The notes: generated by a model not told the origin, from the letters alone. Counted from the stretch's first letter, positions 31,485 to 61,554 are shown. The stretch: 64,000 nucleotides of DNA from a virus (IMGVR_UViG_3300021963_004854:96001-160000); one strand, 5' to 3'. A program made the numbers and translations.

Positions 31485-31547
31485 TTGACATTTACCTGCG
31501 AATCAGCTATAAAGAAAGAGTAGTTGATGACGAGGTGATTCGAAATG
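31485..31547 (+). promoter_or_regulatory. early promoter-RBS cassette with two GANTC sites
   Basis: TTGACA-N17-TATAAA; GAATC 31500, GATTC 31537. Confidence 0.8.
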
Positions 31548-31931
31548 CTTACTCTTGCCGATATTAATGCTGCCACCAATTCTAAAGATGGCAATATCTA
31601 TTCCGACCTCTACAAGGATGTTTACGGCAGCCGTCCTCGGTATGCCCAGTTCGCATCCATCGAAGAGTTCGATGCGGATTTCGAACGCCTTGTGGCTCGT
31701 CTGGCCGAACAGATTGACGAAGATAAGATTCGTCAGGATGCAAATCTTGAAGCATTCAAGGTGCGCGTGGCAGAAACCATGCTTCTTTGTAACTGCGACA
31801 AGGTTCGCGCCGTAGAAATCATCGCCGATGCTGAAGGCGAACTTGAGAACCTTGAGTTCTACAGTTACGAACGCCTTGAGTGGTACTTCGATATTAAATT
31901 CGGAGATATCAAGCAGTGGATGGCTGAATAA
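31545..31931 (+). CDS. early hypothetical protein
   Basis: YSDLYKDVYGSRPR motif; follows cassette. Confidence 0.7.
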   Translation: MLTLADINAATNSKDGNIYSDLYKDVYGSRPRYAQFASIEEFDADFERLVARLAEQIDEDKIRQDANLEAFKVRVAETMLLCNCDKVRAVEIIADAEGELENLEFYSYERLEWYFDIKFGDIKQWMAE

Positions 31932-31937
31932 GTTTTT

Positions 31938-32012
31938 GCGCCTGTAGCTCAAAGGTAGAGCCAGCCCCTCATAAGGGCCAGGTTGCGGGTTCGAGTCCTG
32001 CCGGGCGCACCA
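31938..32012 (+). tRNA. tRNA(CAT), probably Ile2 (lysidine)
   Basis: Loop CTCATAA, G1-C72, Ile2-like body, CCA. Confidence 0.8.
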
Positions 32013-32022
32013 AATATAATAC

Positions 32023-32084
32023 TTGACATTCTCTGTAAATCTGCTATTATGAGAATGTAGTAAGTGAGAAAGTGATTCGTTATG
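32023..32084 (+). promoter_or_regulatory. early promoter-RBS cassette
   Basis: TTGACA..TGCTATTAT..GAGAAAGTGATTCGTTATG. Confidence 0.8.
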
Positions 32085-32282
32085 GAAGTTTTTGCATTGT
32101 TAGGTGAATGGGATTACGAAGGTTCTGTGCTCCTTGGCGTGTATGCGTCTCAAGATGAAGCACGGAATGCCCATGGTGTGTATACTCGTGATGGCGATCG
32201 GCTCATCGACCGCTACTATGTTGAGCGTCGGACGCTCGGTGCACCTGTAGATTCCGATGAGTATCGGTACTACATCGGTTAA
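32082..32282 (+). CDS. early hypothetical protein
   Basis: Follows cassette. Confidence 0.7.
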   Translation: MEVFALLGEWDYEGSVLLGVYASQDEARNAHGVYTRDGDRLIDRYYVERRTLGAPVDSDEYRYYIG

Positions 32283-32292
32283 AGTTTAACAT

Positions 32293-32368
32293 GGACGATT
32301 AGCTCAGTCGGTAGAGCGCGGGACTCTTAATCCTTAGGTCGTAGGTTCGAATCCTACATCGTCTACCA
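32293..32368 (+). tRNA. tRNA-Lys(CTT)
   Basis: Loop CTCTTAA, CCA. Confidence 0.93.
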
Positions 32369-32374
32369 TTTCAC

Positions 32375-32450
32375 GGACACTTAGCTCAGTAGGTAGAGCA
32401 ACGGGCTTTTAACCTGTAGGTCCTGGGTTCGAACCCCAGAGTGTCCACCA
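32375..32450 (+). tRNA. tRNA-Lys(TTT)
   Basis: Loop CTTTTAA, CCA. Confidence 0.95.
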
Positions 32451-32455
32451 TATTT

Positions 32456-32531
32456 GCGAGTGTAGCTCAGTTGGTAGAGCAAACGACCGATAATCGTTAG
32501 GTCACAGGTTCGAACCCTGTCACTCGCACCA
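32456..32531 (+). tRNA. tRNA-Ile(GAT), C33
   Basis: Loop CCGATAA, CCA. Confidence 0.92.
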
Positions 32532-32532
32532 T

Positions 32533-32604
32533 ACCAGCAGAACAAGTGTTCGACCGACTCTCATAAGGTTGGTTCGGGTGGAGCGTTACCACCTGCTGGT
32601 ACCA
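32533..32604 (+). tRNA. atypical tRNA(CAT), candidate elongator Met
   Basis: ACCAGCA/TGCTGGT acceptor + A + CCA; minimal D arm GAAC-AAGT-GTTC; loop CTCATAA; T arm GGTGG-AGCGTTA-CCACC. Confidence 0.65.
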
Positions 32605-32605
32605 T

Positions 32606-32683
32606 GTCACGATGGCAGAGTGGTCCAATGCAACGGATTGCAAATCCGTAAAGCCGCCGGTTCGAATCCGGCTCGTGACTCCA
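32606..32683 (+). tRNA. tRNA-Cys(GCA)
   Basis: Loop TTGCAAA, U73, CCA. Confidence 0.93.
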
Positions 32684-32687
32684 CAAT

Positions 32688-32762
32688 GCGGGTGTAGCTC
32701 AGTGGTAGAGCATCTCGTTGCCAACGAGACGGTCGGCGGTTCGAATCCGCTCCCCCGCTCCA
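32688..32762 (+). tRNA. tRNA-Gly(GCC)
   Basis: Loop TTGCCAA, CCA. Confidence 0.95.
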
Positions 32763-32765
32763 AAT

Positions 32766-32840
32766 GGCCCGGTCGTCTAGTGGCTAGGACACCGCCCTTT
32801 CAAGGCGGAGAAGCGGGATCGAAACCCGTTCGGGCTACCA
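32766..32840 (+). tRNA. tRNA-Glu(TTC)
   Basis: Loop CTTTCAA, T loop ATCGAAA, CCA. Confidence 0.92.
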
Positions 32841-32856
32841 TTTAGAAAGTGTTGTT

Positions 32857-33033
32857 ATGGTTAAAATGATTTTTGCATTTTTGTTTATTTTTGCCCTTGT
32901 ATTCTTTGGAATTCAAATTGTTCGAGATATGACAAAAAGTGAAAAATTAGGCTTGACAAAGTTGTTCGCCTATAGTATAGTGTGTTCTGTAGCAGCGATG
33001 GCCGTTGCCACAGCAATTGTTTTGATTTTCTAA
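32857..33033 (+). CDS. small 2-TM protein (58 aa, not in ORF track)
   Basis: MVKMIFAFLFIFALVFFG..CSVAAMAVATAIVLIF. Confidence 0.65.
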   Translation: MVKMIFAFLFIFALVFFGIQIVRDMTKSEKLGLTKLFAYSIVCSVAAMAVATAIVLIF

Positions 33034-33047
33034 GGAATAAAGTTATT

Positions 33048-33845
33048 ATGAAAAGTGTTACCAAAGCTGTTCTTCTCGCTGGCCTTATGGCAACGACTGC
33101 CGCTTGTACCCGGATTGAAACAGGTGAAGTCGGCGTTCGTCGCTCGTTTGATAAGACCATCGAAACTACCGAACTTCTGCCTGGTTCTGTAAACCAGACT
33201 ATCTTCGGTGATGTTATGACCTTTCCCACAAAGGACGTTCAGGTCGATGTTACTGATTTGACGCCTCTGGCATCTGATAACTCGACTGTTGCTGACTTCG
33301 ATATGGCAGTCATCTATTCGATTAATCCTGGTTCGGTTGCCGAACTCTACATCGAAAAGAACCGCGGTTTCCACGCTGATACCGAAGAAGGTGATACGCT
33401 GTTGATGTATAACTACATCCGCCAGCTTGGCCGTAATGCTGCATATAAGGTTGCTCGTCGTTACGAGTCCTTGAAGATGGCAGATAACCGCGCAGAGATG
33501 GAACAGATGATTCGCCAGGAAATCGTTAACAGTCTTGTTGCCGAAAAGCTAGATGGTGCAATTTCTGTTTCACAGGTTCTTGTTCGCCAGGTAAAGCCCG
33601 CTGCAAACATCGTAGCATCTGCTAACGCCCTTGTTCAAGCCCAGAATGCTGAAAAGCAGAAGCAGGTAGAAGTTCGCACCGCAAAGCTAGAAGCACAGCG
33701 AATTGCCGCTTTGAATGCCAACGCTGGTGCTACCAAGTATATGGAAGCAACCGCAATTGTTACGATTGCAGAAGCAGTGAAAGACGGTAAGGTTAATACC
33801 ATCGTCATTCCTTATGACTTCAAGGGTATTGTGAACGTTAAGTAA
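33048..33845 (+). CDS. SPFH/band-7 domain lipoprotein
   Basis: Lipobox TAAC, RIETGEVGVR, C-terminal coiled coil. Confidence 0.85.
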   Translation: MKSVTKAVLLAGLMATTAACTRIETGEVGVRRSFDKTIETTELLPGSVNQTIFGDVMTFPTKDVQVDVTDLTPLASDNSTVADFDMAVIYSINPGSVAELYIEKNRGFHADTEEGDTLLMYNYIRQLGRNAAYKVARRYESLKMADNRAEMEQMIRQEIVNSLVAEKLDGAISVSQVLVRQVKPAANIVASANALVQAQNAEKQKQVEVRTAKLEAQRIAALNANAGATKYMEATAIVTIAEAVKDGKVNTIVIPYDFKGIVNVK

Positions 33846-33853
33846 TACTGATT

Positions 33854-33940
33854 GGAAGGTGGGCAGGACGGTAATGCAACGCACTGCTAATGCGTCTACT
33901 AGAAATGGTAGAGTGGGTTCGACTCCCACACCTTCCGCCA
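33854..33940 (+). tRNA. tRNA-Ser(GCT)
   Basis: Loop CTGCTAA, long variable arm, CCA. Confidence 0.93.
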
Positions 33941-33959
33941 GTTATAAGTAATAGAATAT

Positions 33960-34037
33960 GGTGGATGTAGCTCAGTTGGTTAGAGTGTCGGCTTGTGATG
34001 CCGAATGTCGCGGGTTCGAGTCCCGTCATTCACCCCA
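33960..34037 (+). tRNA. tRNA-His(GTG) with G-1:C73
   Basis: Loop TTGTGAT; G at -1, C discriminator, CCA. Confidence 0.95.
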
Positions 34038-34100
34038 TTAAAAAAATAAAAAAATTGAAAATAATACTTGACATTTTCGACAAAGTAGTATATATATTAG

Positions 34101-34128
34101 TTCTGTTCTTTGACATTGTTAGAAGTTT
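34101..34128 (+). promoter_or_regulatory. rrn-type boxA antitermination leader (copy 2)
   Basis: 28-nt identity with 29226-29253; follows TTGACA promoter at 34068. Confidence 0.65.
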
Positions 34129-34170
34129 CTAAGTTTGTGTCGGGAGGGTTTCGGCCCTCCCACATAACTT

Positions 34171-34321
34171 ATTTAATTACTCCTGCTGAGAGTAGCGCAT
34201 ATGGACGCATATGCTAGGCGGGCTGGGTGGGCCATCTACCAGTCCTGAAATAATCTCAGCAATGGCTTAGGAGAGGAAGCACCTCACTCCGAAATTCGCT
34301 CATGAGCAGGAGTAATTAAAT
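34171..34321 (+). ncRNA. unidentified structured RNA closed by a perfect 17-bp stem
   Basis: ATTTAATTACTCCTGCT / AGCAGGAGTAATTAAAT with three internal hairpins. Confidence 0.6.
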
Positions 34322-34328
34322 GAGTTTT

Positions 34329-34404
<76 letters not shown>

Positions 34405-34411
34405 TTCTATA

Positions 34412-34490
34412 GCTAAACTACTCGCATGCCGTATGGTGCATGGAGTCTGTCGAGAATGTTTAGCGTAAGCACCAAGACGTGAGGTGCTTA
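34412..34490 (+). ncRNA. unidentified structured spacer RNA
   Basis: GCTAAAC/GTTTAGC stem plus TAAGCACC/GGTGCTTA hairpin. Confidence 0.4.
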
Positions 34491-34493
34491 TAT

Positions 34494-34568
34494 TCCCTAA
34501 TGGCGCAGCGGTAGCGCAGTTGACTGTTAATCAATTGGTCGGTGGTTCGAATCCATCTTAGGGAGCCA
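34494..34568 (+). tRNA. tRNA-Asn(GTT)
   Basis: Loop CTGTTAA, G73, CCA. Confidence 0.95.
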
Positions 34569-34574
34569 GTTTGA

Positions 34575-34649
34575 CGCAGGGTGGAGCAGAGGTAGCTCGT
34601 CTGGCTCATAACCAGAAGGTCGTCGGTTCAAGTCCGACTCCTGCAACCA
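34575..34649 (+). tRNA. initiator tRNA-fMet(CAT)
   Basis: C1:A72 mismatch, loop CTCATAA, CCA. Confidence 0.92.
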
Positions 34650-34651
34650 GT

Positions 34652-34750
34652 TTAGTATCTTTGATCTGGGACACGCATACTAAGTCGTGCATATAAACTA
34701 AGATGCCCTGCATTCAGGGCTACGTAGGGGAAGATCCTACAAGATACTAA
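34652..34750 (+). ncRNA. unidentified multibranch RNA
   Basis: TTAGTATCTT/AAGATACTAA closing stem; GCCCTG/CAGGGC and GTAGG/CCTAC hairpins. Confidence 0.5.
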
Positions 34751-34861
34751 AACACCGCCGCCCGTATGGTGTATAACAATCCCGGGCCTAGTTTCTCGTA
34801 AATATTTTTCAAAAAAGTATTTACAAACACCACACAGTGGTGTATAAGTAGAGAATAAGAA

Positions 34862-35708
34862 ATGGCGGTATAGCGTCATTAGGGTAACCTTCGGCAACGA
34901 AGGCCAAAGCAGGGACTCCTACGTACCTGCGCCGGTAACGGTCCATCTATACAAGCCCAGGTAAGGGTTGTCTCGGCCATGGCCGTAAGCAATCCCCGTC
35001 AGTAGAATGGCGGTAGGCAGTAAGTGAGTGATATAAGTCCGAAAGGATATGAACAGAGCCAGTCGGTGAGTTCTAATAGACTGTGGTGGTCTAGCTGTAT
35101 CGAACCAAACTCGCGAATGCTGAAAAACTAATGGGTAATCGCTGAGTCTGATCTAGCAAGAAAAGGCAAAGCGGTAGCACAATAGTTGAACCGATGAGGG
35201 GAGACTAGAAGTGCGGTTGATTAGTCCGCAAGACGAAAGACATGAGGAGTGTTGTATTTTGTATCTAACAAGATACGAAGCAACTGGAGCAGCACTTCTT
35301 GGTAGGTTCGCAAATTGCTTAATGGTAAAGCAACTGACTCTTAATCAGTAGATTCTAGGTTCAAATCCTAGTTTGTAACAAAAAGCGAAAGTCTGCTCCA
35401 GTGCTATGTGAAAGGTGCTTAATACCTAACACGGAAGTGAATTGGGTTCACGGATTCCCGCAAGGATGAAGTGATTGATCCGAGTGAAGACGTAGCGGTT
35501 TAGCGACTGCGAACAGCTTGCAAGGCTGGCGGAAGAACGAAGGTCGAATAGCATAGCATGATAAGTGATAAGCCACACTTCAAAAAAGGCAGCACTGAGG
35601 AATACTAGATGACCAGCGATGGCTCTAGTGGATAACGAGTTAACACTTCTCGCAAGGAAGTCGGTACGGCTCAAAGGTCCTCAACTAAAAGCAGTAATCT
35701 CATGCTTT
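34862..35708 (+). ncRNA. GOLLD-like giant structured RNA (~850 nt)
   Basis: No credible ORF, own promoter (TTTACA..TATAAG, 34820-34848), many GCAA/GAAA-capped hairpins, embedded tRNA domain, terminal AAAGCA-GTAATCTCA-TGCTTT hairpin, within a phage tRNA cluster; boundaries approximate. Confidence 0.7.
35308..35379 (+). tRNA. CCA-less tRNA-Lys(CTT)-like domain inside the giant RNA
   Basis: D arm GCTT-AATGGTA-AAGC, ACTGA-CTCTTAA-TCAGT, CTAGG-TTCAAAT-CCTAG, weak acceptor, no CCA. Confidence 0.75.
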
Positions 35709-35714
35709 ACAAAG

Positions 35715-35801
35715 ACTTATTAGATGAACACATCAAACCCACTGGGCGGCAGGTCGACTTAATGCTGCGATAGCGGTCCCTGGTGTGTTCTTCTAATAAG
35801 T
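35715..35801 (+). ncRNA. unidentified rod-shaped RNA
   Basis: ACTTATTAGA-T-GAACACATCA pairs with TGGTGTGTTC-T-TCTAATAAGT. Confidence 0.55.
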
Positions 35802-35804
35802 TTT

Positions 35805-35880
35805 GGGGAATTAGCTCAGATGGTAGAGCGCCAGCTTTGCAAGCTGGATGTCAACGGTTCGATCCCGTTATTCTCCACCA
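35805..35880 (+). tRNA. tRNA-Ala(TGC)
   Basis: Loop TTTGCAA, G3:U70, CCA. Confidence 0.95.
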
Positions 35881-35885
35881 ATATA

Positions 35886-36015
35886 GACCACCTATGCTGA
35901 ACCTCGTGGGGAACCACATAGAGAAAGTGGTAGTGTATGCTGTTGCAACAGTAATTGCTATCTAGGAAGATTGCAACGTCCGGAAGTAAGCAATCAAGGC
36001 ACACTGCGGGTGGTC
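35886..36015 (+). ncRNA. unidentified multibranch RNA
   Basis: GACCACCT/GGGTGGTC closing stem; GTGG-GGAA-CCAC; GTAGTGT/ACACTGC. Confidence 0.5.
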
Positions 36016-36024
36016 ACTCTTTTT

Positions 36025-36107
36025 GCGCCTATGGTGGAATTGGTAGACACGCTGGTTTTAGGTACCAGTGCGAAAGCGTGGGGGTTCGAGTCCCTCTAGG
36101 CGTACCA
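36025..36107 (+). tRNA. tRNA-Leu(TAG)
   Basis: Loop TTTAGGT, variable arm, CCA. Confidence 0.93.
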
Positions 36108-36113
36108 TTATAT

Positions 36114-36189
36114 GCTCCTGTAGCTCAGTTGGTAGAGCATCGGTTTGAAGAACCGAGTGTCGGCGGTTCGAACCCGTCTGGGAGCACCA
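36114..36189 (+). tRNA. tRNA-Phe(GAA)
   Basis: Loop TTGAAGA (G37), CCA. Confidence 0.92.
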
Positions 36190-36194
36190 GCTAT

Positions 36195-36279
36195 GGGTCG
36201 GTAAAGCCAGTGGCTCTGGCAGTCGGACTGTAAATCCGATCCGTTTTCGGGGGAGGATCGATACCTCACTGGCCCACCA
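36195..36279 (+). tRNA. tRNA-Tyr(GTA), divergent D and T loops
   Basis: Loop CTGTAAA, variable arm, T loop ATCGATA, CCA. Confidence 0.85.
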
Positions 36280-36280
36280 A

Positions 36281-36357
36281 GGTCTGGTAGCTCAGTTGGT
36301 TAGAGCGTCGGCCTGTCACGCCGAAGGTCGCGGGTTCAAGTCCCGTCCAGATCGCCA
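36281..36357 (+). tRNA. tRNA-Asp(GTC)
   Basis: Loop CTGTCAC, G73, CCA. Confidence 0.95.
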
Positions 36358-36376
36358 TTACAATAAATATATTCAT

Positions 36377-36449
36377 GCGACTGTTCTCCTGGGTGAGGAC
36401 TCAGCCTTCCAAGCTGACGGAGAGGGTTCGAATCCCTTCGGTCGCTCCA
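36377..36449 (+). tRNA. tRNA-Gly(TCC)
   Basis: Loop CTTCCAA, U73, CCA. Confidence 0.9.
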
Positions 36450-36451
36450 AT

Positions 36452-36532
36452 GCCCCCGTATACCCTCTGGCTACGAACCAGTGGAAAGGTTAACTGAATT
36501 ACATGCAGGTTTGAGTCCTGTCGGGGGCTCCA
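36452..36532 (+). tRNA. D-armless tRNA-Arg(ACG)-like RNA with enlarged variable region
   Basis: GCCCCCG/CGGGGGC acceptor + T + CCA; CTGG-CTACGAA-CCAG; GCAGG-TTTGAGT-CCTGT. Confidence 0.7.
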
Positions 36533-36554
36533 TTCTCAACGAAGGAAAAATAAT

Positions 36555-36734
36555 ATGAATATCAAAACTTACATGGCTCTAGCAGTTGCCGCTCTTACTG
36601 CCGCTTGCGCTCCAGCTTCGGAAAAACCATCGGTTGCAGAAGCCGCTGGTCCAGCCGCAGAAGAAGCACTTGCTACAGCAAATGCAACAGAAGCAGTAGA
36701 GCCTGCTCTTGGTGAAAATGAAAAGCCAAAGTAA
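36555..36734 (+). CDS. small Ala/Glu-rich lipoprotein (59 aa, not in ORF track)
   Basis: AAGGA RBS; MNIKTYMALAVAALTAA-C lipobox. Confidence 0.75.
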   Translation: MNIKTYMALAVAALTAACAPASEKPSVAEAAGPAAEEALATANATEAVEPALGENEKPK

Positions 36735-36744
36735 TTAAAAGTTT

Positions 36745-36821
<77 letters not shown>

Positions 36822-36827
36822 GTTTTT

Positions 36828-36902
36828 GTCGGTGTGTTGTAACGGTAACATGCAGGTCTCCAAAACCTTGCGATCCGGGTTCGAATCCTGGCACCCTCGC
36901 CA
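36828..36902 (+). tRNA. tRNA-Trp(CCA), two acceptor-stem mismatches
   Basis: Loop CTCCAAA; GTCGGTG vs CACCCTC. Confidence 0.85.
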
Positions 36903-36920
36903 TTTTATGACAGGTGACTT

Positions 36921-37361
36921 ATGTATGATAAAGCAAGAGAAGCAATTCTAAACTCTAGTGAAACGTCATCTGTTTATATCGGTGCCGATTCTATTAGGTT
37001 CAAGCGTAAAGACGGTCATTGGTATGCTAAGTATTCTACCGTCATTATTCTTCATATGGATTCTAAGCACGGTGCTAGAATTTTTCATAAAAACATTGAA
37101 ATGCGTGACTTTGGTAACTTACGCCAACGTCTAATAGCGGAAGTTGGATTTGCTATCGAAGCCGCAACGGCAATACTTGACGTTTTGGGTGAAAGAAAGT
37201 TGGAAATTCATCTTGACATTAACCCAAATCCAAAGTATAAGAGTAATGTAGCCGTGAAAGAAGCACTCGGCTACGTTAAAGGAACTCTTGGTATTGATGC
37301 TAAGATCAAGCCAGAGTCCTTCGCTGCAACACATGCGGCGGACCACGTTGTGCGGGGTTAG
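36921..37361 (+). CDS. RNase H-like YkuK/DUF458 protein
   Basis: VYIGADS, IHLDINP, KIKPESFAATHAAD. Confidence 0.8.
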   Translation: MYDKAREAILNSSETSSVYIGADSIRFKRKDGHWYAKYSTVIILHMDSKHGARIFHKNIEMRDFGNLRQRLIAEVGFAIEAATAILDVLGERKLEIHLDINPNPKYKSNVAVKEALGYVKGTLGIDAKIKPESFAATHAADHVVRG

Positions 37362-37427
37362 CTCAGTTGGTAGAGCGTCTGCTTTACACGCAGAATGTCG
37401 GCGGTTCGAGCCCGTCACTCCGTACCA
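37352..37427 (+). tRNA. tRNA-Val(TAC), overlaps upstream stop codon
   Basis: Loop TTTACAC, CCA. Confidence 0.95.
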
Positions 37428-37466
37428 TATATTATGATAGTATTAACAACAAAAGGTAAAACTTAT

Positions 37467-37985: not shown

Positions 37986-38055
37986 TCCAACCCTATTAAA
38001 CTTCCTGGGTATGAAGTAAACTGCCCATTTTACATTTAACTTGGAAACTTCAAGC

Positions 38056-39325: not shown

Positions 39326-39327
39326 AA

Positions 39328-41034: not shown

Positions 41035-41075
41035 TGATATAATCCTATCTGAGATTAACAAGGTAAATTCTGTTA

Positions 41076-44846: not shown

Positions 44847-44910
44847 TTGACATTTCTGACGAATCTGCTAGGATGTAAGAGTAGTCAGAAAGAGAAAGTG
44901 ATTCGTTATG
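44847..44910 (+). promoter_or_regulatory. early promoter-RBS cassette with two GANTC sites
   Basis: TTGACA 44847, GAATC 44861, GATTC 44900. Confidence 0.8.
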
Positions 44911-45243
44911 ATTAAGGTTTACCAGTTCCAGCTTACCGATGCCGAAATCGACGCCATCAACCGTGGCGAAGAAAGCGAAAAGTTCACCGCGTATTTCGGT
45001 CGTTCGTTTGAACGCACCTTCAAGCCTGAGTCCTTCGAGTATTACACTCACGTTGCTAACGTTGATGTTGATGGCTTTGAACAGGCCTTCAATGTGATGA
45101 ACCGCTGGGAAGATGATGAGAACTTCAATCGGCTTGAACGCCTCGTTCCCTGTTCTTCCATGTCGGTTGGTGATATCGTTGCCGACCATGACGGCACCCT
45201 CTATCGTTGTGCCTCTTTCGGGTTTGCCAAACTTACCGCTTGA
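44908..45243 (+). CDS. YodL-like early protein
   Basis: SMSVGDIV motif. Confidence 0.6.
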   Translation: MIKVYQFQLTDAEIDAINRGEESEKFTAYFGRSFERTFKPESFEYYTHVANVDVDGFEQAFNVMNRWEDDENFNRLERLVPCSSMSVGDIVADHDGTLYRCASFGFAKLTA

Positions 45244-45303
45244 CATTTGGCACGGTTGTGCTATTATAAAATGTAAGTTGAAAAGAGAAAGTGATTCGTT
45301 ATG
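45240..45303 (+). promoter_or_regulatory. early promoter-RBS cassette, near-identical to 61323-61386
   Basis: TGCTATTATAAAATGTAAGTTGAAAAGAGAAAGTGATTCGTTATGAA shared exactly. Confidence 0.8.
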
Positions 45304-51477: not shown

Positions 51478-52336
51478 ATGAATATGATTGATAATTCATA
51501 TGATCCTACTCGCAGACTTACTGGTAGAGAACGCAAAGAAAAGCGCGTTTCCCTAATGGAAGATGTTGATGAATACATCCAAGAGATTGTGATGTATTGC
51601 GATGATGAAGAAGATTTGATTGCCCTTGGCTCTCTTCTCCAGGTAATTTCCAAAAACATTCTTACTACGGTTATGGACAAAGGCGACTGGCGCCACGTTA
51701 TTAACAAGTTTGCAAAAGACGTAGAGCAACAACAAGACGTAAGGTCCACCATGGAGTCCATACGCAAATACATGTGAGGTGACGATGGATAAGCAAAGCA
51801 TAATTAATCATATCAAAGCACTTGAACAGAAACACCGCGAACAAGATGAATCCCTTGAAATCCTTATGCAACGGCCGAAGCCACAGGAGTGGCTGATGAA
51901 TACAATCAAGCGCCGCAAACTAAAGATCAAAACTGAAATTGAACATTTGAAACAACTACATAATATTGGAGATTTGTAATGATTATTAATACACAAATTT
52001 TATTTAATGATATGACCAGCGACATGGAAACAGAAGCAGGTGAAAGCACCATAAATTGCAACATCTATGTTGATGCACAGGGTGCTATGCCATCTGAAAA
52101 GGAAAAGGTAAAGGCCATTCTGGACCAGGCATACAAGGATATTAGGTCGGCGCTCTATGCGGTGTAAAATCGACAACGACAAGTGGGAAAATGTTGGTAA
52201 GATTTATTTCGTCCATGAAGCCAAGACTAGGGAAAAATCCACTGCGGTGCAGCTTACCCTAGAGGACGATGATGGTAACATTATCACTACCACGGTCGCC
52301 AACCATCAAATCGAATGGCTTGAAGAAAGTTCTTGA
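51478..52336 (+). CDS. four small hypothetical ORFs (51478-51777, 51779-51979, 51979-52167, 52157-52336)
   Basis: Coupled ORFs; 51779 is a DUF465-like coiled coil. Confidence 0.55.
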
Positions 52337-52392
52337 CATTTTCTACGAATCTGCTATTGTAGGATAGTAGATAGTAGAGAGAACGAATCATG
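52333..52392 (+). promoter_or_regulatory. early promoter-RBS cassette, downstream GANTC inverted
   Basis: TTGACA 52333, GAATC 52347, CGAATCA directly before ATG 52390. Confidence 0.78.
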
Positions 52393-52860: not shown

Positions 52861-53219
52861 TGGCAACTGAGTATTGGGTAGTCCGTATCAATTATAATCA
52901 AATTGACCGTGATCATGTTCTTGTAGATGCTGCAACAGCAAAAGAAGCAGAGATGCGTCTCCGCGATAATGGATGTAATGCTCCTTATATTAAGGCGATG
53001 TATAAAGCAAAGGTTTCGAAGTAATGTATAATTTTTGGAATATTTTTGTGAATGAGATTAACAAACATTTCAAGAGTTTACTTGAGTGGTTGTTCTACAT
53101 CGTGGTGTTTAGCATCATTAGTAACCTTGCATACGATGGCGATAAGACAGCCTTTGCTACGATGCTTGCCAGTTATGCAATGCTCTTATCAATTATTAAT
53201 CAACGTAAAGTAAACTCAA

Positions 53220-53783
53220 ATGCCAGCTAGATTTCTAATCAGTGATACCCATTTTGGTCACACCAACACATGGGAAAAGTTTACCCTCGCAGATGGTAGT
53301 CCTCTCCGTCCGTTCACCTCCACCGAGGAGATGGACGAGGCGATGGTAGACAACTGGAACAAGACAGTTCGTCCACAAGATACAGTATATCATCTCGGGG
53401 ACGTAGTAATCGCCCGACGCCATCTGGAAACAGTGAAGCGTCTGAATGGGCGGAAAATCCTTATCCGTGGAAACCATGACATTTACAAGGATAAGGACTA
53501 TTATGGGGCAGGATTCGAGCAGATTCATGGCGTTCGCGTGTTTGTGGATCAGTTCATCCTGTCTCATATTCCCCTGCACCCAGACTGTGTAGGTGAGCGG
53601 TTCAAGCGTAACGTCCACGGTCACCTGCATGGTAATCGGATTATGCAGAAGTATGATACTGGCATGGGATCTACGTGGCATGCAGATTATGACATGCGAC
53701 CAGATCCTCGCTATCTGTGTGTATGTGTGGAGCAGATTAACTACACACCTGTTTCCTTCGATGATGTATTGAAAATGACTTGA
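53220..53783 (+). CDS. calcineurin-like metallophosphoesterase
   Basis: SDTHFGH, HLGD, GNHD, SHIP, HGHLH. Confidence 0.9.
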   Translation: MPARFLISDTHFGHTNTWEKFTLADGSPLRPFTSTEEMDEAMVDNWNKTVRPQDTVYHLGDVVIARRHLETVKRLNGRKILIRGNHDIYKDKDYYGAGFEQIHGVRVFVDQFILSHIPLHPDCVGERFKRNVHGHLHGNRIMQKYDTGMGSTWHADYDMRPDPRYLCVCVEQINYTPVSFDDVLKMT

Positions 53784-53834
53784 CATGGCAGTAAAATCTG
53801 CTATAGTCAATAAGTAATTTAGAGAAAGATAAAA

Positions 53835-54431
53835 ATGAAATTGATTCTTACGGACTGTGACGGTGTTCTAATGGACTGGAATGCCACATTTACTGAGTGG
53901 ATGGCACTCAAGGGCTTCAAAGAAGTCCGCACGGATGTGTACCATATCAACGAACGCTATGGCATTGACAGGAAGCAGAGTAAGGCCCTGGTGCGCGAGT
54001 TCAATGAGAGCGCAGCCATCGGCTTCTTGAAGCCCTTCCGTGATGCCCGTTACTATGTTCGGCGTATGTATGAACAGCATGGCTATCGGTTCCGTGTCAT
54101 TACCAGCCTCAGCTTGGACCCATGGGCGGTCAAGGCCCGTGAAGCAAACCTCAAGCAATACTTCGGTGACGCCATCGAGAGTGTCATTTGCCTTGACTGT
54201 GGTGCCGACAAAGACGATGCTCTTGCACCATACAAGGACAGCGGCATGTTCTGGATTGAAGATAAGCCAGAGAACGTCGAAGCTGGTATGAAGGTGGGTC
54301 TCCGTGGTATTCTGATTGACCACGAACACAACACAGACTGGCTGCCAGCCAGCATGGTAAACGTTGGTGGTAAGCTGGCATATCGGGCCGAAACATGGGC
54401 AGACATTTGCGATATCGTAAAAGATCGGTAA
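53835..54431 (+). CDS. HAD-family nucleotidase (T4 30.2-like)
   Basis: TDCDGVL, WIEDK. Confidence 0.85.
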   Translation: MKLILTDCDGVLMDWNATFTEWMALKGFKEVRTDVYHINERYGIDRKQSKALVREFNESAAIGFLKPFRDARYYVRRMYEQHGYRFRVITSLSLDPWAVKAREANLKQYFGDAIESVICLDCGADKDDALAPYKDSGMFWIEDKPENVEAGMKVGLRGILIDHEHNTDWLPASMVNVGGKLAYRAETWADICDIVKDR

Positions 54432-54433
54432 CA

Positions 54434-54441
54434 TATAAATA
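54434..54441 (+). promoter_or_regulatory. T4-type late promoter TATAAATA
   Basis: Exact consensus, AAGGAG RBS, ATG 54462. Confidence 0.85.
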
Positions 54442-54461
54442 GACGCAATAAGGAGTCTATT

Positions 54462-55139: not shown

Positions 55140-55142
55140 TGC

Positions 55143-55484
55143 TTGACTTTCCTCACGAATCTGCTACATTTAATAAGTAGTCAGTGAGAAGAAAGTGATT
55201 CGAAATGATAGTTGCCCAGCCTGCCCTTGACCTCGTTGTGATCCACGAAGACCTGCCTGTTCGGGTTTGGTACAACAACCCTGCCCCTCAGAAAGCAGTC
55301 TGGCTCATCAAGCCCAACGGTTTGATGCGGCTCTACGCCAACGAAGCCGTGATGGCGATGCCAGTGGCTGATGCTGCCATGGCAGCGAAAGCCTTTGCGC
55401 CGGTCGTGAAATGACCGCTTGACATTTGATTGCGAATCGAGTATATTATAAAAGTAGTCAGTGAGAAAGGAATGATTCGTTATG
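55143..55484 (+). promoter_or_regulatory. two early promoter-RBS cassettes (55143-55207, 55419-55484) flanking ORF 55205-55414
   Basis: GAATC 55157 and 55434; GATTC 55197 and 55474. Confidence 0.8.
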
Positions 55485-55838
55485 GCTTATATGTCTCAGA
55501 GTGAGAAGGCTCGTCTTGCCCCTAAAGTCAAGGCAATCCTCAAGAAGTATAACATGAAGGGTTCGCTTGCGGTTCGCAATTACAGCACCCTTGTTCTCAA
55601 CCTCAAGTCAGGTCCTCTGAACCTCGCCGACAATGACCGTGGTTATAACCAGGTCAATATGTATTGGTTGGCTGATAGCTACCAAGGTAAGGAACTGGCT
55701 TTCCTCCAAGAAATCAAAGCTGCCATGAATGATGGCAATTATGACAACAGCAACGCCCAAATCGATTACTTCTCGGTGGGTTGGTACGTTAACGTCAACG
55801 CTGGTCAGTGGAACAAGCCATACCAGAAGGTTGCTTAA
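55482..55838 (+). CDS. early hypothetical protein
   Basis: MAYMSQ..IDYFSVGWY..GQWNKPY. Confidence 0.7.
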   Translation: MAYMSQSEKARLAPKVKAILKKYNMKGSLAVRNYSTLVLNLKSGPLNLADNDRGYNQVNMYWLADSYQGKELAFLQEIKAAMNDGNYDNSNAQIDYFSVGWYVNVNAGQWNKPYQKVA

Positions 55839-55900
55839 ATCTATTGACATTTTTGTGATTAAATGGTAATATATACCATACTTTATAATGGAGTTTTATT

Positions 55901-57370
55901 ATGATTTCCAGTGAACTTTTTGAAATTGATGCCGCTTGTGTCCGTCGAGAAGAAATGACGGTCGAGCGCCTATATTACATGATGACCACCGCGCTGTCTA
56001 GGCTCAATCCTAATCCCGTTGGTCAACGGGCACCAACTAATGATGGCTTCCAGAATAGCAAGAACGAAGGGATCATCGAATCGATCCTCTCTGGATATGG
56101 TGTCGATACCATCTATCTCCGCGATATCACTGTGTATGAGCCAGAACATCCCATCCGCAAGTTGTATAACAACGATGGTTATTTGACAATCGATGGCGGT
56201 CACCGCTGCCGTGCCATTCGTTGGTTCATCGAAAACAAGTTTTATATTACCATCGATGACAACAAGTTTTTCTTCCGCGATTTGCCACGCGATATTCTTG
56301 AGAAGTTTATGCAGGCGACGGTAGCCGTGAAGTATATCGTTTGCACCTCTGGACAGGCTCACAAGTGGTTCCTGATGATTAACAAGATGACCAAGACCAA
56401 TGAGATTGAGTCCATCATGGCTGATGATGAGTCAGATGTTACGCGGTTCATCCGCACCATGACCTGGTATGTCAAGGAATATGGCAACCGCGAACAGATT
56501 CATCCGATCTTCCGTGTCTATATTTCCGAGAAGAGTGACTATACCACCGACCTCTGGAACAAAGCCAATCTTGGCGGTTCGTTCTACTATCACGCATTCA
56601 TCACCCTTGCCAAGGCAATTGGCAACGGAAATGTGAATGCAGGCGAGACCGCATGGAAGAGGATTATTGCAGATGATTATGCTGGAAAGCCTCTAACCAA
56701 GAACGCAATCGAAATCTGGAACAAGTTCTTTGATGACCTGTTAAAGTTCCAAAAGATTGTTGGCTATAAGAAGGGATTGGACGATGATAGCTTCGGCTTC
56801 TTCTCTTGCTTCTGGTTCCACTTGTTAAACAAGTATGGCAAGAACTTCCGTCTAGACATGGACACTCTTGCCCCTATCCTGGCACGCGCCAAGACTCTCT
56901 TGACAATCAAGAATGGCACCCAGCACAATGACTATGACGATACTATCGTCACGGGTGTTGATGGCGAGAATGAATATTTGAAGACCCTGATGCGGTCATA
57001 TGTCAAGGCATTCTCATACGGAAGTAAGCAAGACTTTGCTGGTGAGTATATCCTCAATGAAGTCGAACGCCAATCGGATGATGACACTGGCATCATTGTG
57101 ATGGACAATCGCCGCAGTCTGTCTCTCCGCGACAAGGAAGCACTATTTGCAGCGCAGATGGGAAAGTGCTGGCTCGACTATAACGGGCATCCGTGTAAGA
57201 GTTCCGATAAGAAGTTGACGATTGACGATTGCGTCCTCGCCCACGATACGCCATATGCATATGGCGGTAAGGCAAGCGATGGGGTGATTATGTGTAATTC
57301 GTGCCACTCCAAGCAGGGTATGCTTACTCTTGATGAATATGTGGCACACCTCAATTCAGAAACCGCTTGA
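55901..57370 (+). CDS. DUF262 (ParB-like) + HNH protein, GmrSD-like
   Basis: IIESIL..IDGGHR..FLMIN; C-terminal C..C..HDTPYAYGG..CNSCH. Confidence 0.7.
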   Translation: MISSELFEIDAACVRREEMTVERLYYMMTTALSRLNPNPVGQRAPTNDGFQNSKNEGIIESILSGYGVDTIYLRDITVYEPEHPIRKLYNNDGYLTIDGGHRCRAIRWFIENKFYITIDDNKFFFRDLPRDILEKFMQATVAVKYIVCTSGQAHKWFLMINKMTKTNEIESIMADDESDVTRFIRTMTWYVKEYGNREQIHPIFRVYISEKSDYTTDLWNKANLGGSFYYHAFITLAKAIGNGNVNAGETAWKRIIADDYAGKPLTKNAIEIWNKFFDDLLKFQKIVGYKKGLDDDSFGFFSCFWFHLLNKYGKNFRLDMDTLAPILARAKTLLTIKNGTQHNDYDDTIVTGVDGENEYLKTLMRSYVKAFSYGSKQDFAGEYILNEVERQSDDDTGIIVMDNRRSLSLRDKEALFAAQMGKCWLDYNGHPCKSSDKKLTIDDCVLAHDTPYAYGGKASDGVIMCNSCHSKQGMLTLDEYVAHLNSETA

Positions 57371-57418
57371 CATTTACCAGCGAATCATCTATAAGTAATT
57401 ATAGAAAGTGAGATTGTT

Positions 57419-57697
57419 ATGTATACGATTGAAGAAACCATTCAGCATATTGATAACCCCAATAATTGGTGCAGCATGGCCGATATCTGGGAAGTTGAAG
57501 ACCGCACCGCTATCGTGTGGGCAGAAGAAGTTGAGAATAAATCGACCACTGCCCCGTGGCGTACCTCGTATGTTGTCCGATATTGGGAAAAAGGTGAGTG
57601 GAAAGATACCCGGTCGTTCTATACGGAGACCGCGGCACTTGATTTTGCCCGCGATTTTGTCAACAGCCCACATCGGTTCCCATATCCTACCGACTAA
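57419..57697 (+). CDS. early hypothetical protein
   Basis: Follows cassette at 57367. Confidence 0.65.
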   Translation: MYTIEETIQHIDNPNNWCSMADIWEVEDRTAIVWAEEVENKSTTAPWRTSYVVRYWEKGEWKDTRSFYTETAALDFARDFVNSPHRFPYPTD

Positions 57698-57763
57698 AAG
57701 AATCACTTGACATTCCTAGCGAATCTGCTATTATGAGAATATAGAGTGAAAAAGGAGATTGTT

Positions 57764-58015
57764 ATGCGAGTCGAACCTGTTGGTATGAATATTCAAGGCG
57801 TTGTGCGTGAGATTTGTAACTTCCTGGCTTATGTCGGTGACTTTTACGCCGATGGCGGTCTGTATGATATGGGTGCGACCTCGCGCCAGATCATTGACGC
57901 CTTCGACATTTACGCCAACCGCGTTGGCTATGAGAACCTTGCACTGGATTCGGTCGACCGTGAGGGCGTCCGTGATGTAATGATTGAACAATTTGGATTG
58001 GTATTTCCCGAATGA
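57764..58015 (+). CDS. early hypothetical protein
   Basis: Follows cassette at 57707; DSVDRE motif. Confidence 0.65.
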   Translation: MRVEPVGMNIQGVVREICNFLAYVGDFYADGGLYDMGATSRQIIDAFDIYANRVGYENLALDSVDREGVRDVMIEQFGLVFPE

Positions 58016-59313
58016 GATATAAATGGATTAATCAGCTAAACGAGTCCGATAGCCGCCTGCACAAGGAAGATGTTCTTGCGCGGGCATTGGCTGCAGGTGA
58101 CCATGTGTTCCTGAACGGCATTCGTAACTGCTACAACCCATACATTACCTTTGGCGTGAAGCAGATTCCATCGACGGAGGGCATCACAGGTGCACCGAAC
58201 CCGTATGAGGACTTTGATGAACTGCTTGCCAAGCTGGCCGCTCGACAGTTGACTGGCCACGCAGCCAGGGATGCCATCCTTGGTATGTCCCTCAAGTTTG
58301 ATAGTGATGAGTGGAATCTGTTCCTTGCTCCTATCTTGCGCCGTGATATGCGGGCAGGCTTTAGTGATAGAACTATCAATAAGGTATGCAAGGGTACCGA
58401 ATATGTAATTCCCACCTTTGGTTGCCAGCTGGCTGCTAACAGCGAGGGTCGACCAGAGATGGTAGGTACCAAGTGGCTTGAGCCTAAGCTGGATGGTGCC
58501 CGTGTGTTGCTAGTTGTTTCGGATGACAATACGGCCACTTGCTACAGCCGCAACGGCAAGGTGTTCGATAACTTCCCACATGTGGAACAACAGGTCCTAA
58601 GTAATGTGTATGCTATACGCACCTACCTTCGTATCAAGGGCGGCTTCGTGCTTGACGGCGAGATTATGGGCAAGTCCTTCCAAGACCTGATGCGTCAAGC
58701 ACAGCGCAAGGAGAACGTCCAGACGCAGGACACCGTGTTCAATGTGTTTGACATTCTGCCTCTTGAGGACTTCAAGCGTGGCTTCTGGAATGCCCAGTTG
58801 CGCAAGCGCCTTGCTATCCTATCCGATATGCAGCCTGTATTTGATGCGATGCCCAACGTTACGCGGGTCGATAGCCAGATTGTGGTAGACCTCAGCACCG
58901 AAGAAGGCCGCACCAAGCTCCACGAGTATGCTACCGAGATGGTAACCGCTGGCTTTGAAGGTATCATGATTAAAGACATGGAAGCACCGTATGAGTGTAA
59001 GCGCAACACCTTCTGGATGAAGTGGAAGCCTGTTATCACCGTCGATCTCCCCGTCATTGGCCTAGAAGAAGGCACTGGTCGTAACAAGGGTCGTCTAGGC
59101 GCTCTGGTGTGTCGTGGTGTTGACCATAGCAAGGAGATTAGTGTCAACGTGGGTAGTGGCTTTAGTGACACCGAGCGTGACCTATTCTGGAAGCAACAGG
59201 AATTAATCGTTGGTCGCACAGCCGAAATCTTGTGCGATGTTATAACTCAGAACCAAGACGGTACCTATTCACTGAGGTTTCCACGGTTCGTTCGATGGAG
59301 GGATGACAAGTGA
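58012..59313 (+). CDS. lig: ATP-dependent DNA ligase
   Basis: EPKLDGAR, LDGEI, EGIMIK, WMKWK, VGSGF, SLRFPRF. Confidence 0.95.
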   Translation: MRYKWINQLNESDSRLHKEDVLARALAAGDHVFLNGIRNCYNPYITFGVKQIPSTEGITGAPNPYEDFDELLAKLAARQLTGHAARDAILGMSLKFDSDEWNLFLAPILRRDMRAGFSDRTINKVCKGTEYVIPTFGCQLAANSEGRPEMVGTKWLEPKLDGARVLLVVSDDNTATCYSRNGKVFDNFPHVEQQVLSNVYAIRTYLRIKGGFVLDGEIMGKSFQDLMRQAQRKENVQTQDTVFNVFDILPLEDFKRGFWNAQLRKRLAILSDMQPVFDAMPNVTRVDSQIVVDLSTEEGRTKLHEYATEMVTAGFEGIMIKDMEAPYECKRNTFWMKWKPVITVDLPVIGLEEGTGRNKGRLGALVCRGVDHSKEISVNVGSGFSDTERDLFWKQQELIVGRTAEILCDVITQNQDGTYSLRFPRFVRWRDDK

Positions 59314-60105
59314 CTTATCTAGCAACCGCATACCGTTGGGGATGGACCAACGCCCATAGTTATATTGTCTATTGCGGGAATGACTATGACCGTGCATTGG
59401 AACTCGCAGAGGAAGAAAACAATGACCGCGCGGGTAAGTATGGTGTAGATGTTCGCCAGTATGATGAGGAAGGCGACTGGCAGATGCTACTAGCATATTT
59501 CAAGTCCAGTTATGGCGAGGACATGCCTCATCACAACTATCGTCTTGACTATTTCAACACCCTCGGACATATGATGGACGAATATGTGAATGGTACATTC
59601 TATGAAGTCCAAGAGGGTGGATCGGTGCTACAGAGAACTTCTATTGAACCTGATCCTCGCATAGTTGCACGGGCTAGGAGCCGCAAAGAATTCTATGACG
59701 CCTTACAGGAAGGTCTAATCACAAGAGGAGAAGACAATGGCAATCATTGACAATAACAATAGCAATTTCAGACCAATTGACTGGGATAGCATTTCAATTC
59801 CAGCCAATACTAGCCACACCATTACGGGCACCACTGGTACCTTCACAGCCGGTCTACCCGGCGCTCTTATTGATTACACCATGGAACATGATAGGGATTG
59901 GCTGGATGCATCTGGTACACCAAAAGATCAGATGGAAGCCATATTCAAGAAGGAAATGGCAGTCAAGCTGGCTGAAAAGATGATTGCGGATGGCCATGTT
60001 CTATTCACCAAGCAAGACATAATGCATAATAATACCGTTCGCTATAAGGCCTACACCTGGGTGGGCAACAAAGACTTTATTGAACAGCGGCGTAAATACG
60101 GATAG
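59310..60105 (+). CDS. two hypothetical ORFs (59310-59750, 59737-60105)
   Basis: Coupled ORFs. Confidence 0.55.
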
Positions 60106-60113
60106 GGAACACC

Positions 60114-60704
60114 ATGTCAAGCAATGAAACCTTTACTATTGATGAGCGACTAGAAATCACGCAGGCCAAGGACCTAATCCGCAAGAACCTCCGTGACCTG
60201 TTCGAAGGTCTGCCTATCAGTTATTATGAGCATTTCAAGACCGCCATTCTTACTGGTGGTGCTATTGGTTCTGTTCTCCGCAAAGAGACACCGAATGACT
60301 GGGACATGTATCTGGAGCAATCAAGCGCCGACAATTTCATGAAAAAAGTGCTGGCTAATACGGACAATATTCAGGCCAGCATCCTAGAACTGCCCCACAA
60401 GTATACTGGCACTAAGGTAAATGGTAAGTATGTAACTGCATATGCTACCACCTTCGTGAACAAGCTCCAGGTAATCACCGGGTTCAATAAGACCCACCGC
60501 TTGGAGTTTGATTTTGTCCACTGTATGCCATACTTTGATATGAAGACCCAGAAGCTCCACATCTCCAAGCAACAGTATAGTGCATGTAAGGAGAAGAAGC
60601 TAATTAAGAATCCGCGTGTGGTAAAGCCAGCGGGTGAAATGCATACCTCCATTAAGAGGATAGAGAAGCTCCTGGATAGGGGATGGACATTAATGCCGAC
60701 ATGA
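60114..60704 (+). CDS. minimal Pol-beta-family nucleotidyltransferase-like protein
   Basis: ILTGGAIGS..PNDWDMY..FDFVHC. Confidence 0.65.
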   Translation: MSSNETFTIDERLEITQAKDLIRKNLRDLFEGLPISYYEHFKTAILTGGAIGSVLRKETPNDWDMYLEQSSADNFMKKVLANTDNIQASILELPHKYTGTKVNGKYVTAYATTFVNKLQVITGFNKTHRLEFDFVHCMPYFDMKTQKLHISKQQYSACKEKKLIKNPRVVKPAGEMHTSIKRIEKLLDRGWTLMPT

Positions 60705-60717
60705 CCAAACGAATCGC

Positions 60718-61554
60718 TTGACATTTCCGACGAATCTGCTATTGTTAGTAAGTAGTCAGTGAGAGAAAGTGATTCGAAATGTTTGCTCTTGTTTTTGCCC
60801 TTGTCTTGATTCCAGTCTTCCAGATCATTCGGGAAGACCTTGTTGCTGGTTATGAACTCGTTCCTGCTGAGGTGATGTAAGATGATTAAGGTTCAGTATC
60901 GCTACTATAACTATTCCCTAAAGACCAAGTTTTTTGAGGAATACGAAGATGCCCGCAAGTTTTGGAACTACATGCGTGTCCAATCCGGCATCCGCTATGC
61001 TGAGTTGATTACCGCTTGACATTTGGTCGCGAATCGACTATAGTTATTAAGTAGTCAGTGAGAAGAAAGTGATTCGTTATGATTGATATCCTCGAGAACG
61101 TTGAGAAGTTTGACCGTGTTGTTGCCGAGCATGTCCTGTGGATGTTTGATGACGCCGAAGAGATTGGAAGCAGCGATATCAACGCCTGCGTCAACAACAT
61201 TCTGATGGAATATTACCCCAAAGCGAGTGACGCTCCTGTTCACCAGTTTTCGATTGCCAAGATTGCAGTCCGTCAAGCCCTGATGAACATGGAAGATATT
61301 CGCCAGCTCTACTAATTACCGCTTGACATTTTGTGTGGTTATGCTATTATAAAATGTAAGTTGAAAAGAGAAAGTGATTCGTTATGAAATACCAGTTTGA
61401 AGCAAATAGCAAGAAAATCGTGGTCGAGGCAGATAAGATGCTGTCCGCCATGGCCGAAGCCAACAAGCAGTTCCGCAGTCTCCCACAGGGTGCCTGGATG
61501 GCTGTTGGTTCGTTGAATAGCTACCGCTGGGTACCTGGTAATTTTGTCGATTAA
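60718..61554 (+). other. three tandem early cassettes (60718, 61016, 61323) with small ORFs 60779-60880, 60882-61019, 61079-61315, 61384-61554
   Basis: Repeated TTGACA..GATTCG..ATG units; ORFs absent from the track were translated by hand. Confidence 0.75.

Follow-up and report, generated by a model that had tools for sequence, protein, structure and literature searches.

Why should the putative early promoters of a phage carry, at fixed positions, the target site of a bacterial cell-cycle methylase? The question is raised by a 64,000-nucleotide stretch of viral DNA (the window; bases 96001–160000 of the record IMGVR_UViG_3300021963_004854, 171,566 bp, 42% G+C), along which a promoter–leader cassette containing GANTC is repeated. 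GANTC is the target of the N6-adenine methylase CcrM in Alphaproteobacteria, and GcrA is a cofactor of sigma70. A preliminary description of the window had listed 13 such units and suggested that early transcription is gated or boosted by host GcrA and by the methylation state of the incoming genome. Here we report that the sites are strongly conserved and that their presence in related phages accompanies that of a phage methylase; we tentatively propose that they are GcrA-type epigenetic boxes. The source is identifiable as a large T4-like phage. Its major capsid protein belongs to the T4 Gp23 family and is 62–66% identical to those of Methylophilales phage Melnitz, Pelagibacter phage HTVC008M and cyanomyoviruses; the window also holds 25 tRNA genes. 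The isolate-phage collection gave no nucleotide match for 8 kb of the region, nor for one cassette, and many relatives are present in IMG/VR. The cassettes have the appearance of early promoter and leader units served by host sigma70.

All 13 units are present and each starts with TTGAC (Table 1). Positions are given relative to a predicted transcription start and assume that the −10 hexamer lies at −12 to −7. Two places are occupied repeatedly. The first is in the spacer between −35 and −10, where nine of the 13 units have CGAATC; its GANTC ends exactly 3 nt before the −10 hexamer in every case, for spacer lengths of both 16 and 17 nt. This spacer box is centred at about −18, or −19 if a longer discriminator is assumed, and reads GATTCG on the bottom strand. 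The second is a leader site, centred at about +21 to +23, which is TGATTCG or, rarely, its exact reverse complement. TGATTCG-NN-ATG is found in 9/13 units and a single inverted copy, CGAATCA, abuts the ATG at 52384–52390. At least one site is thus present in 12 of the 13 units, within about 40 bp of the transcription start; the cassette at 53780 has none at the fixed places. These counts agree with those of the preliminary description, which had also reported GANTC at the promoters 15725, 24341 and 24888. All three do carry it, only 24341 at the fixed spacer offset. A third recurrent site, (A/C)GAATC(A/G)C, was absent from the earlier list; it abuts the −35 element at 57700 and 60711 and at genome 82517 and 84808 (“genome” denotes the numbering of the virus record throughout). 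At least five further cassettes lie outside the window (genome 81475, 82117, 82517, 84808 and 161371). Genome-wide counts of GANTC centres are 16 promoters for −18, 11 promoters for +20 to +23 and six sites for −39 to −41.

The arrangement is strongly enriched over expectation from dinucleotide shuffles: TTGAC-N9/10-GANTC-NNN-TA occurs ten times in the window (0.08 expected) and TGATTCG-NN-ATG nine times (0.22 expected). Against the genome background, GANTC is slightly under-represented overall (519 observed, about 635–654 expected) and about 7-fold denser in 18 cassettes. Taken together, this phage and six relatives (ligase about 90% identical) supplied 46 distinct promoter cores for a pooled comparison. 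In it the CGAATC columns hold 1.2–1.7 bits, the best −10 positions 1.5–2.0 bits and the extended −10 TG 0.5–0.8 bits, with only 0.02–0.4 bits in the five columns just 5′ of the box. The box is set among 24 different 5′ flanks (hexamers) and eight different 3-nt linkers. An orthologous series is provided by the promoter of a CobS-like gene, in which the box is invariant in nine distinct variants (CobS 82–99% identical) and the linker and upstream spacer vary. The same box offset is used in unrelated promoter sequences (24341, genome 11740 and genome 13281), and the box is flipped at genome 82117. Conservation near the −10 level amid a random spacer, orthologous invariance, a shared offset in unrelated promoters and a flipped copy together indicate purifying selection on the box, acting on it as a double-stranded DNA site.

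A uniform set of cassettes could also arise if the boxes had no function and merely belonged to a promoter and leader consensus of the lineage, homogenised by duplication and gene conversion, with the leader site acting as an extended Shine–Dalgarno sequence. The cassettes are indeed homologous over their full length and the insertion and deletion junctions of relatives lie inside them. In one relative (L015, 7886–7947) a hybrid joins the 5′ half of cassette 55143 to the 3′ half of cassette 55419; a 215-bp stretch holding a 69-codon open reading frame (ORF; window 55205–55414) is missing, and the junction lies inside the hybrid. Two others (L016 and L017, 5339–6868) have about 1.5 kb of extra genes between cassettes. 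The cassettes appear to act as recombination modules in the manner of PeSLs, the early promoter plus stem-loop cassettes of T4-type phages (Arbiol 2010; Comeau 2014; PMC2839356, PMC4122927), from which they differ in having no stem-loop. Both are repeated near-consensus sigma70 early promoters in gene-variable regions, with indel junctions of relatives inside the repeats. In contrast to PeSLs, there is no terminator stem-loop ahead of the promoter here (18 cassettes inspected over 60 nt of upstream sequence showed no consistent hairpin or T-run), the conserved unit runs on through the leader and ribosome-binding site, and a 6-nt block is present in the spacer. Canonical PeSL membership was rejected for want of the upstream stem-loop. 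Functionless boxes would also agree with a sister clade lacking the methylase described below, in which GANTC occupies the spacer offset in 0/251 distinct TTGACA promoters and another conserved spacer sequence, TTTGG, is found there. What this explanation does not account for is a box conserved at nearly the level of the better −10 positions next to random columns, its recurrence at the same offset in non-homologous promoters, its flipped copy and its persistence where the methylase is down to 55% identity.

The leader site bears on the same alternative. It overlaps the ribosome-binding region, and GTGATTC can pair with the 3′ region GGAUCAC of 16S rRNA; the pairing is longer in leader variants such as GAGGTGATTC. 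The genome avoids GATC (observed/expected about 0.5), which could explain GATTC in place of GATCC. However, only 2/174 long ORFs have GTGAT within 20 nt upstream of their start, the usual motif being AGGA or GGAG. A Shine–Dalgarno role is therefore unsupported as a general explanation of the leader site, although it may still impose a second constraint. CGAATCA, for which no pairing with the rRNA is possible, occupies the same leader place in several lineages. Among sites followed by ATG within 6 nt, methylase-bearing lineages have 38 TGATTCG versus three of the centre-swapped TGAATCG, and ten CGAATCA versus two CGATTCA; the methylase-less clade shows no such asymmetry (11 versus 17 and eight versus six, respectively). 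The preliminary description had taken the one inverted copy in the window as a sign of a double-stranded DNA site, and the recurrence of the exact reverse complement in several lineages bears this out. In our reading, the leader element is a site in DNA that must also accommodate the ribosome-binding region, and we consider it unlikely that the boxes are without function.

Published GcrA boxes offer a direct comparison. Haakonsen gave the consensus as TGATTCG, more broadly YGAKTCK, with the sites of the direct regulon centred in a narrow band around −20 and at +2 to +30 and boxes being rare right after the −10 element (PMC4647560). Wu placed GcrA boxes at −20 ± 1, −30 ± 2 and +5 to +30, with GAATC at −22 to −18 in PcsM and TGAGTCG at +12 in PmipZ (PMC9976885), and the GcrA DNA-binding domain was crystallised with TGATTCG DNA (PMC5887438). 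The leader TGATTCG is the optimal published heptamer, sits on the same strand as the downstream site of PmipZ and, at +21 to +23, fits the published window. The bottom-strand orientation of the spacer site is that of the upstream site of PcsM (GAATC on the top strand). The 36 spacer heptamers comprise 14 CGATTCG, two TGATTCG, 19 AGATTCG and one AGATTCT, with a 3′ G in 35/36. The preliminary description had noted that TGATTCG and CGATTCG match YGAKTCK; the AGATTCG heptamers, whose first A stems from the extended −10 TG that follows the box, do not. As in the sigma70 promoters that GcrA and CcrM control in Caulobacter crescentus (Haakonsen 2015; Wu 2018, 2023), GANTC is placed in a sigma70 promoter, TGATTCG is used, and one site lies in the −35/−10 spacer near −20 and one at +2 to +30, in the same strand orientations upstream and downstream. 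Unlike the Caulobacter promoters, the phage elements are known here from sequence alone, lie on a lytic phage genome in about 20 near-consensus promoters, have a spacer box 2 bp nearer to −10 and heptamers that often start with A rather than C or T, and would probably receive their methyl groups from a phage enzyme. The literature searched contained no description of GcrA boxes in phage promoters.

A motif of 6–7 nt at three places in the cassette might instead be an operator with no connection to methylation, for example for a phage repressor of early shut-off; binding in the spacer and at about +22 would block both binding and escape of RNA polymerase. The motif is also more specific than GANTC, its central base being almost always A/T. 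We think this very unlikely. The sites have neither a dyad nor a fixed relative orientation, and it would take two coincidences for the motif to match the GcrA heptamer exactly and to occur alongside a methylase of the GANTC family.

That methylase, P0001, is encoded outside the window by a 181-aa ORF (genome 15841–16386) just upstream of genes for gp59-like (genome 16633–17223) and gp32-like (17421–18338) proteins. It contains the motifs FYPTP, EPCAGDG and NPPW (ITNPPW), matches the PHROG family phrog_799, ‘DNA methyltransferase’ (1e-35), and has a predicted M.TaqI-like fold. It is 54% identical to AMO44073 of phage DSS3P8, 40% to a gene of phage PBC5 annotated as a DNA methyltransferase and 49–53% to Paracoccus genomic loci. 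Decewicz aligned AMO44073 and the PBC5 enzyme NP_542323, to which the PBC5 match of P0001 may or may not correspond, with 179-aa NPPW enzymes of Paracoccus aminophilus prophages described as ‘CcrM-like specific’ (PMC5537653). GANTC methylation by the P. aminophilus prophage enzymes was shown by protection from a restriction enzyme (PMC3925955); P0001 is linked to them through this published alignment and through homologues in other Paracoccus genomes. By its length, motifs and matches P0001 belongs to the family of small CcrM-like (GANTC) phage methyltransferases of Alphaproteobacteria, and it is likely to be specific for GANTC. A direct link to the tested phiLM21 enzyme was dropped, the similarity being only remote. 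P0001 resembles the CcrM-like methyltransferases described from phages and prophages of Alphaproteobacteria (Dziewit 2014; Decewicz 2017) in length, in its NPPW and S-adenosylmethionine-binding motifs and in its place beside replication genes. Unlike those enzymes, it belongs to a T4-like virulent phage known only from metagenomes, its specificity is deduced, and candidate targets are visible here where the cited papers propose a regulatory role and no target sites.

Methylase and boxes occur together in related phages. We searched 24 long related contigs for both, the control pattern giving counts of 0–1 per strand; some of the 24 were found through the box or the methylase, so that the sample is biased, and their lineages are related and supply few evolutionary contrasts rather than 24. 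All six methylase-bearing contigs have box promoters, with counts of 7 and 5 (methylase 95–97% identical), 7 (64%), 1 (61%) and 10 and 10 (55%). The 14 contigs without the methylase that have no box promoter include genomes estimated to be 95%, 92% and 86% complete. One exception is a fragment from the close clade (59% complete) with 17 boxes, on which the methylase was not found; two of the 24 contigs have a single box match each. In other methylase-bearing T4-like lineages (at the one locus checked, L380, the capsid protein is 66% identical) GANTC peaks at −18 (six promoters), at −31 overlapping the −35 element (five) and at +17 to +23. We note that 350-kb phage contigs of an unrelated lineage (L094–L098, methylase 62% identical) have a promoter right after the methylase gene, at locus position 3557, with CGAATCG in its spacer 4 nt before −10.

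The association of methylase and boxes would also be expected if the phage enzyme methylated the boxes and the reader were not GcrA. N6-Methyladenine at about −18 and in the initially transcribed region could directly alter binding or melting by sigma70-RNA polymerase, or a phage protein could read the mark, which could for example tell parental from newly replicated genomes. The spacer box being nearer to −10 than published GcrA boxes is in keeping with this, as is GANTC right after −10, where GcrA boxes are rare, in promoter 15725 and in the distant clade. Methylation alone leaves unexplained the conserved flanks (C before GAATC in 35/36 and the full TGATTCG of the leader), which fit the preference of GcrA, and no candidate phage reader and no GcrA homologue were found. 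We judge a reader other than GcrA to be improbable.

A role for GcrA depends on the host. The P0001 family has 39 records in the isolate-phage collection, of which 38 infect Alphaproteobacteria, and 71 loci in species-representative genomes, where every named isolate is an alphaproteobacterium. The phage also encodes a permuted transfer-messenger RNA (tmRNA; genome 14720–15093, locus L009, outside the window; found with ARAGORN), with the tag ANDNVAFAGYALAA, that passes the Rfam threshold for alpha_tmRNA (71.8 bits) and scores 101.8 bits as tmRNA_permuted. tmRNAs are also carried by relatives of this phage group that infect non-alphaproteobacteria, and we therefore give this RNA light weight. 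From the tmRNA type and, as the stronger evidence, the distribution of the methylase family, the host is likely to be an alphaproteobacterium. A search for the host by BLAST with the tmRNA (401 genomes, class of G001, a Celeribacter genome) gave only matches of 22–42 nt, mostly in small genomes, and was uninformative; GcrA is present in 3/5 of the genomes from that search, which says nothing on the true host. The CcrM/GcrA pair is reported to be conserved in nearly all Alphaproteobacteria (PMC13687562). In the phage genome no gene of the CcrM type (PF01555), Dam type or GcrA family (PF07750) was found. Neither was a gene of the dCMP-hydroxymethylase/ThyA family, which speaks against a T4-type route to base modification and which we count in favour of the proposal that follows.

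We therefore propose that the sites are GcrA-type epigenetic boxes, methylated by the phage CcrM mimic and/or host CcrM and read by host GcrA, and rate the chance of this as somewhat short of even. The 181-aa methylase, and/or host CcrM, would methylate the adenines of the boxes. Host GcrA on sigma70-RNA polymerase would then bind the methylated boxes and favour the open complex at the phage early promoters. Nothing that was tested contradicts the involvement of GcrA and CcrM, which is plausible and partly supported. Of the reading given in the preliminary description, the heptamer, the site positions and a likely alphaproteobacterial host are retained; the source of methylation is changed, as it need not be host CcrM when the phage has a probable methylase of its own.

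Several observations weigh against this proposal. The most frequent spacer heptamer, AGATTCG (19/36), is outside YGAKTCK, and the spacer box, at −20 to −16 and adjoining the extended −10 TG, is displaced from the −22 to −18 of the PcsM cryo-electron microscopy scaffold. The promoters are already near consensus and may not need an activator. The cassettes are homologous recombining repeats and their copies are therefore not independent; the overlap of the leader site with the ribosome-binding region, its potential pairing with 16S rRNA and the avoidance of GATC, all set out above, count on the same side. One 88%-complete contig has three box promoters and no methylase. Five isolate alphaproteobacterial phages with the methylase family lack the promoter pattern TTGAC...GANTC...TA: RcXuper has two matches and DSS3P8, GB2A, Atu_ph07 and RHph_N28_1 have none, the consensus searched being of the E. 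coli type, which may not be theirs. Between P0001 and p027, the phiLM21 enzyme that was tested, the similarity is remote (hhalign probability 85.6%). Finally, the presence of GcrA and CcrM in the host is an assumption.

CcrM-mimicking GANTC methylases were reportedly found a decade ago in many alphaproteobacterial phages, with a ‘regulatory role’ proposed and no target named. To our knowledge, the only role known for GcrA is in regulating cell-cycle genes of the host. Here a methylase of the GANTC family co-occurs with fixed-position GcrA-type boxes in phage early promoters, across a divergence of the methylase to 55% identity. This leads to a testable hypothesis, that the phage writes the epigenetic mark of its host on its own promoters and so captures GcrA-RNA polymerase. 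If true, this would be the first virulent phage whose early programme exploits the methylation circuit of the alphaproteobacterial cell cycle, and would suggest that parental and replicated genomes may be told apart by methylation. A fully self-contained programme is also conceivable, in which GcrA boxes of about 20 early promoters are marked by the phage methylase, fully methylated packaged genomes are transcribed at once by host GcrA-RNA polymerase and under-methylated new copies are poor early templates. We hold this to be decidedly unlikely; if true, it would give an early-to-late switch without factors of the MotA/AsiA type and would account for the high frequency of GANTC methylases among phages of Alphaproteobacteria. 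The mom promoter of phage Mu is controlled by Dam methylation through OxyR; there the site is GATC, the hosts are enterobacteria, a single promoter is involved and methylation blocks a repressor. Both systems would tie phage transcription to adenine methylation of short promoter-near sites; here, unlike in Mu, the sites are GANTC in many early promoters and the proposed reader activates.

Table 1. Promoter cassettes and other GANTC-bearing promoters of the window (window coordinates; all on the + strand)
Feature	Coordinates	Strand	Sites and neighbouring elements
Cassette	31485–31547	+	−35 31485; spacer GAATC 31500–31504 (CGAATCA); −10 31508; leader TGATTCG 31536–31542; ATG 31545
Cassette without spacer box (AAATC instead)	32023–32084	+	leader TGATTCG 32073–32079; ATG 32082
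Cassette	44847–44910	+	spacer GAATC 44861–44865 (centre −18); leader TGATTCG 44899–44905 (centre +22); ATG 44908
Cassette without spacer box	45240–45303	+	leader TGATTCG 45292–45298; ATG 45301
Cassette	52333–52392	+	spacer GAATC 52347–52351; inverted leader CGAATCA 52384–52390 abutting ATG 52390
Cassette without GANTC at either fixed place	53780–53837	+	GATTC 53843–53847 lies inside the ORF
Cassette	55143–55207	+	spacer GAATC 55157–55161; leader TGATTCG 55196–55202; ATG 55205
Cassette	55419–55484	+	spacer GAATC 55434–55438 (CGAATCG); leader TGATTCG 55473–55479; ATG 55482
Cassette	57367–57421	+	spacer GAATC 57382–57386 (CGAATCA); no leader site; ATG 57419
Cassette upstream of DNA ligase operon	57700–57766	+	upstream GAATC 57700–57704 abutting −35; spacer GAATC 57721–57725; AAGGAG-type ribosome-binding site; ATG 57764
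Cassette with all three sites	60711–60781	+	upstream 60711–60715; spacer 60732–60736; leader TGATTCG 60770–60776; ATG 60779
Cassette	61016–61081	+	spacer GAATC 61031–61035 (CGAATCG); leader TGATTCG 61070–61076; ATG 61079
Cassette without spacer box	61323–61386	+	leader TGATTCG 61375–61381; ATG 61384
Sigma70-type promoter, different sequence family	24341–24369	+	GAATC 24356–24360, same offset, 3 nt before −10
Promoter	15725–15762	+	GAATC 15754–15758 directly after −10; GANTC 1 nt further downstream in the distant clade
Promoter	24888–24943	+	GACTC 24897–24901, centre near −24; not a fixed position

Some further features of the cassettes and of the genome were observed. A leader block resembling GTAGTCAGTGAGA is conserved about 6–20 nt after −10 in the window cassettes (e.g. 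60746–60765) and could be a start-site region or an RNA element; the distant clade has a related block, TTAGACAGT. About 20 promoters of that distant sister clade have GANTC 0–1 nt after −10, for example TATAATA followed by GAATC (L032, L035, L037, L070, L071, L076 and L079). At other distant-clade loci, such as L292, L309 and L331, the orthologous CobS-like promoter has no GANTC; inverted repeats (e.g. CCGCAA..TTGCGG) flank −35 or fill the spacer there and resemble an operator for a different regulator. Across the whole genome GTAC is strongly avoided (observed/expected 0.26–0.35), GATC and GGCC stand at about 0.5 and GANTC is mildly depleted (0.8), a pattern that suggests restriction pressure at GTAC and GATC and not at GANTC. 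Outside the window, genome 82582–84801 (L010) encodes a 739-aa protein with no Pfam match and genome 84886–86058 a MoxR/CbbQ-type AAA ATPase, the CobS-like protein; each gene is under a box promoter, and the two promoters, about 2.3 kb apart, are conserved across many IMG/VR contigs. At genome 161258–161290 (L011, 1258–1290) three overlapping or adjacent CGAATC/GATTCG sites are packed into about 30 bp after a terminator-like T-run, and one of them overlaps a TTGACG −35 element with its centre near −28.

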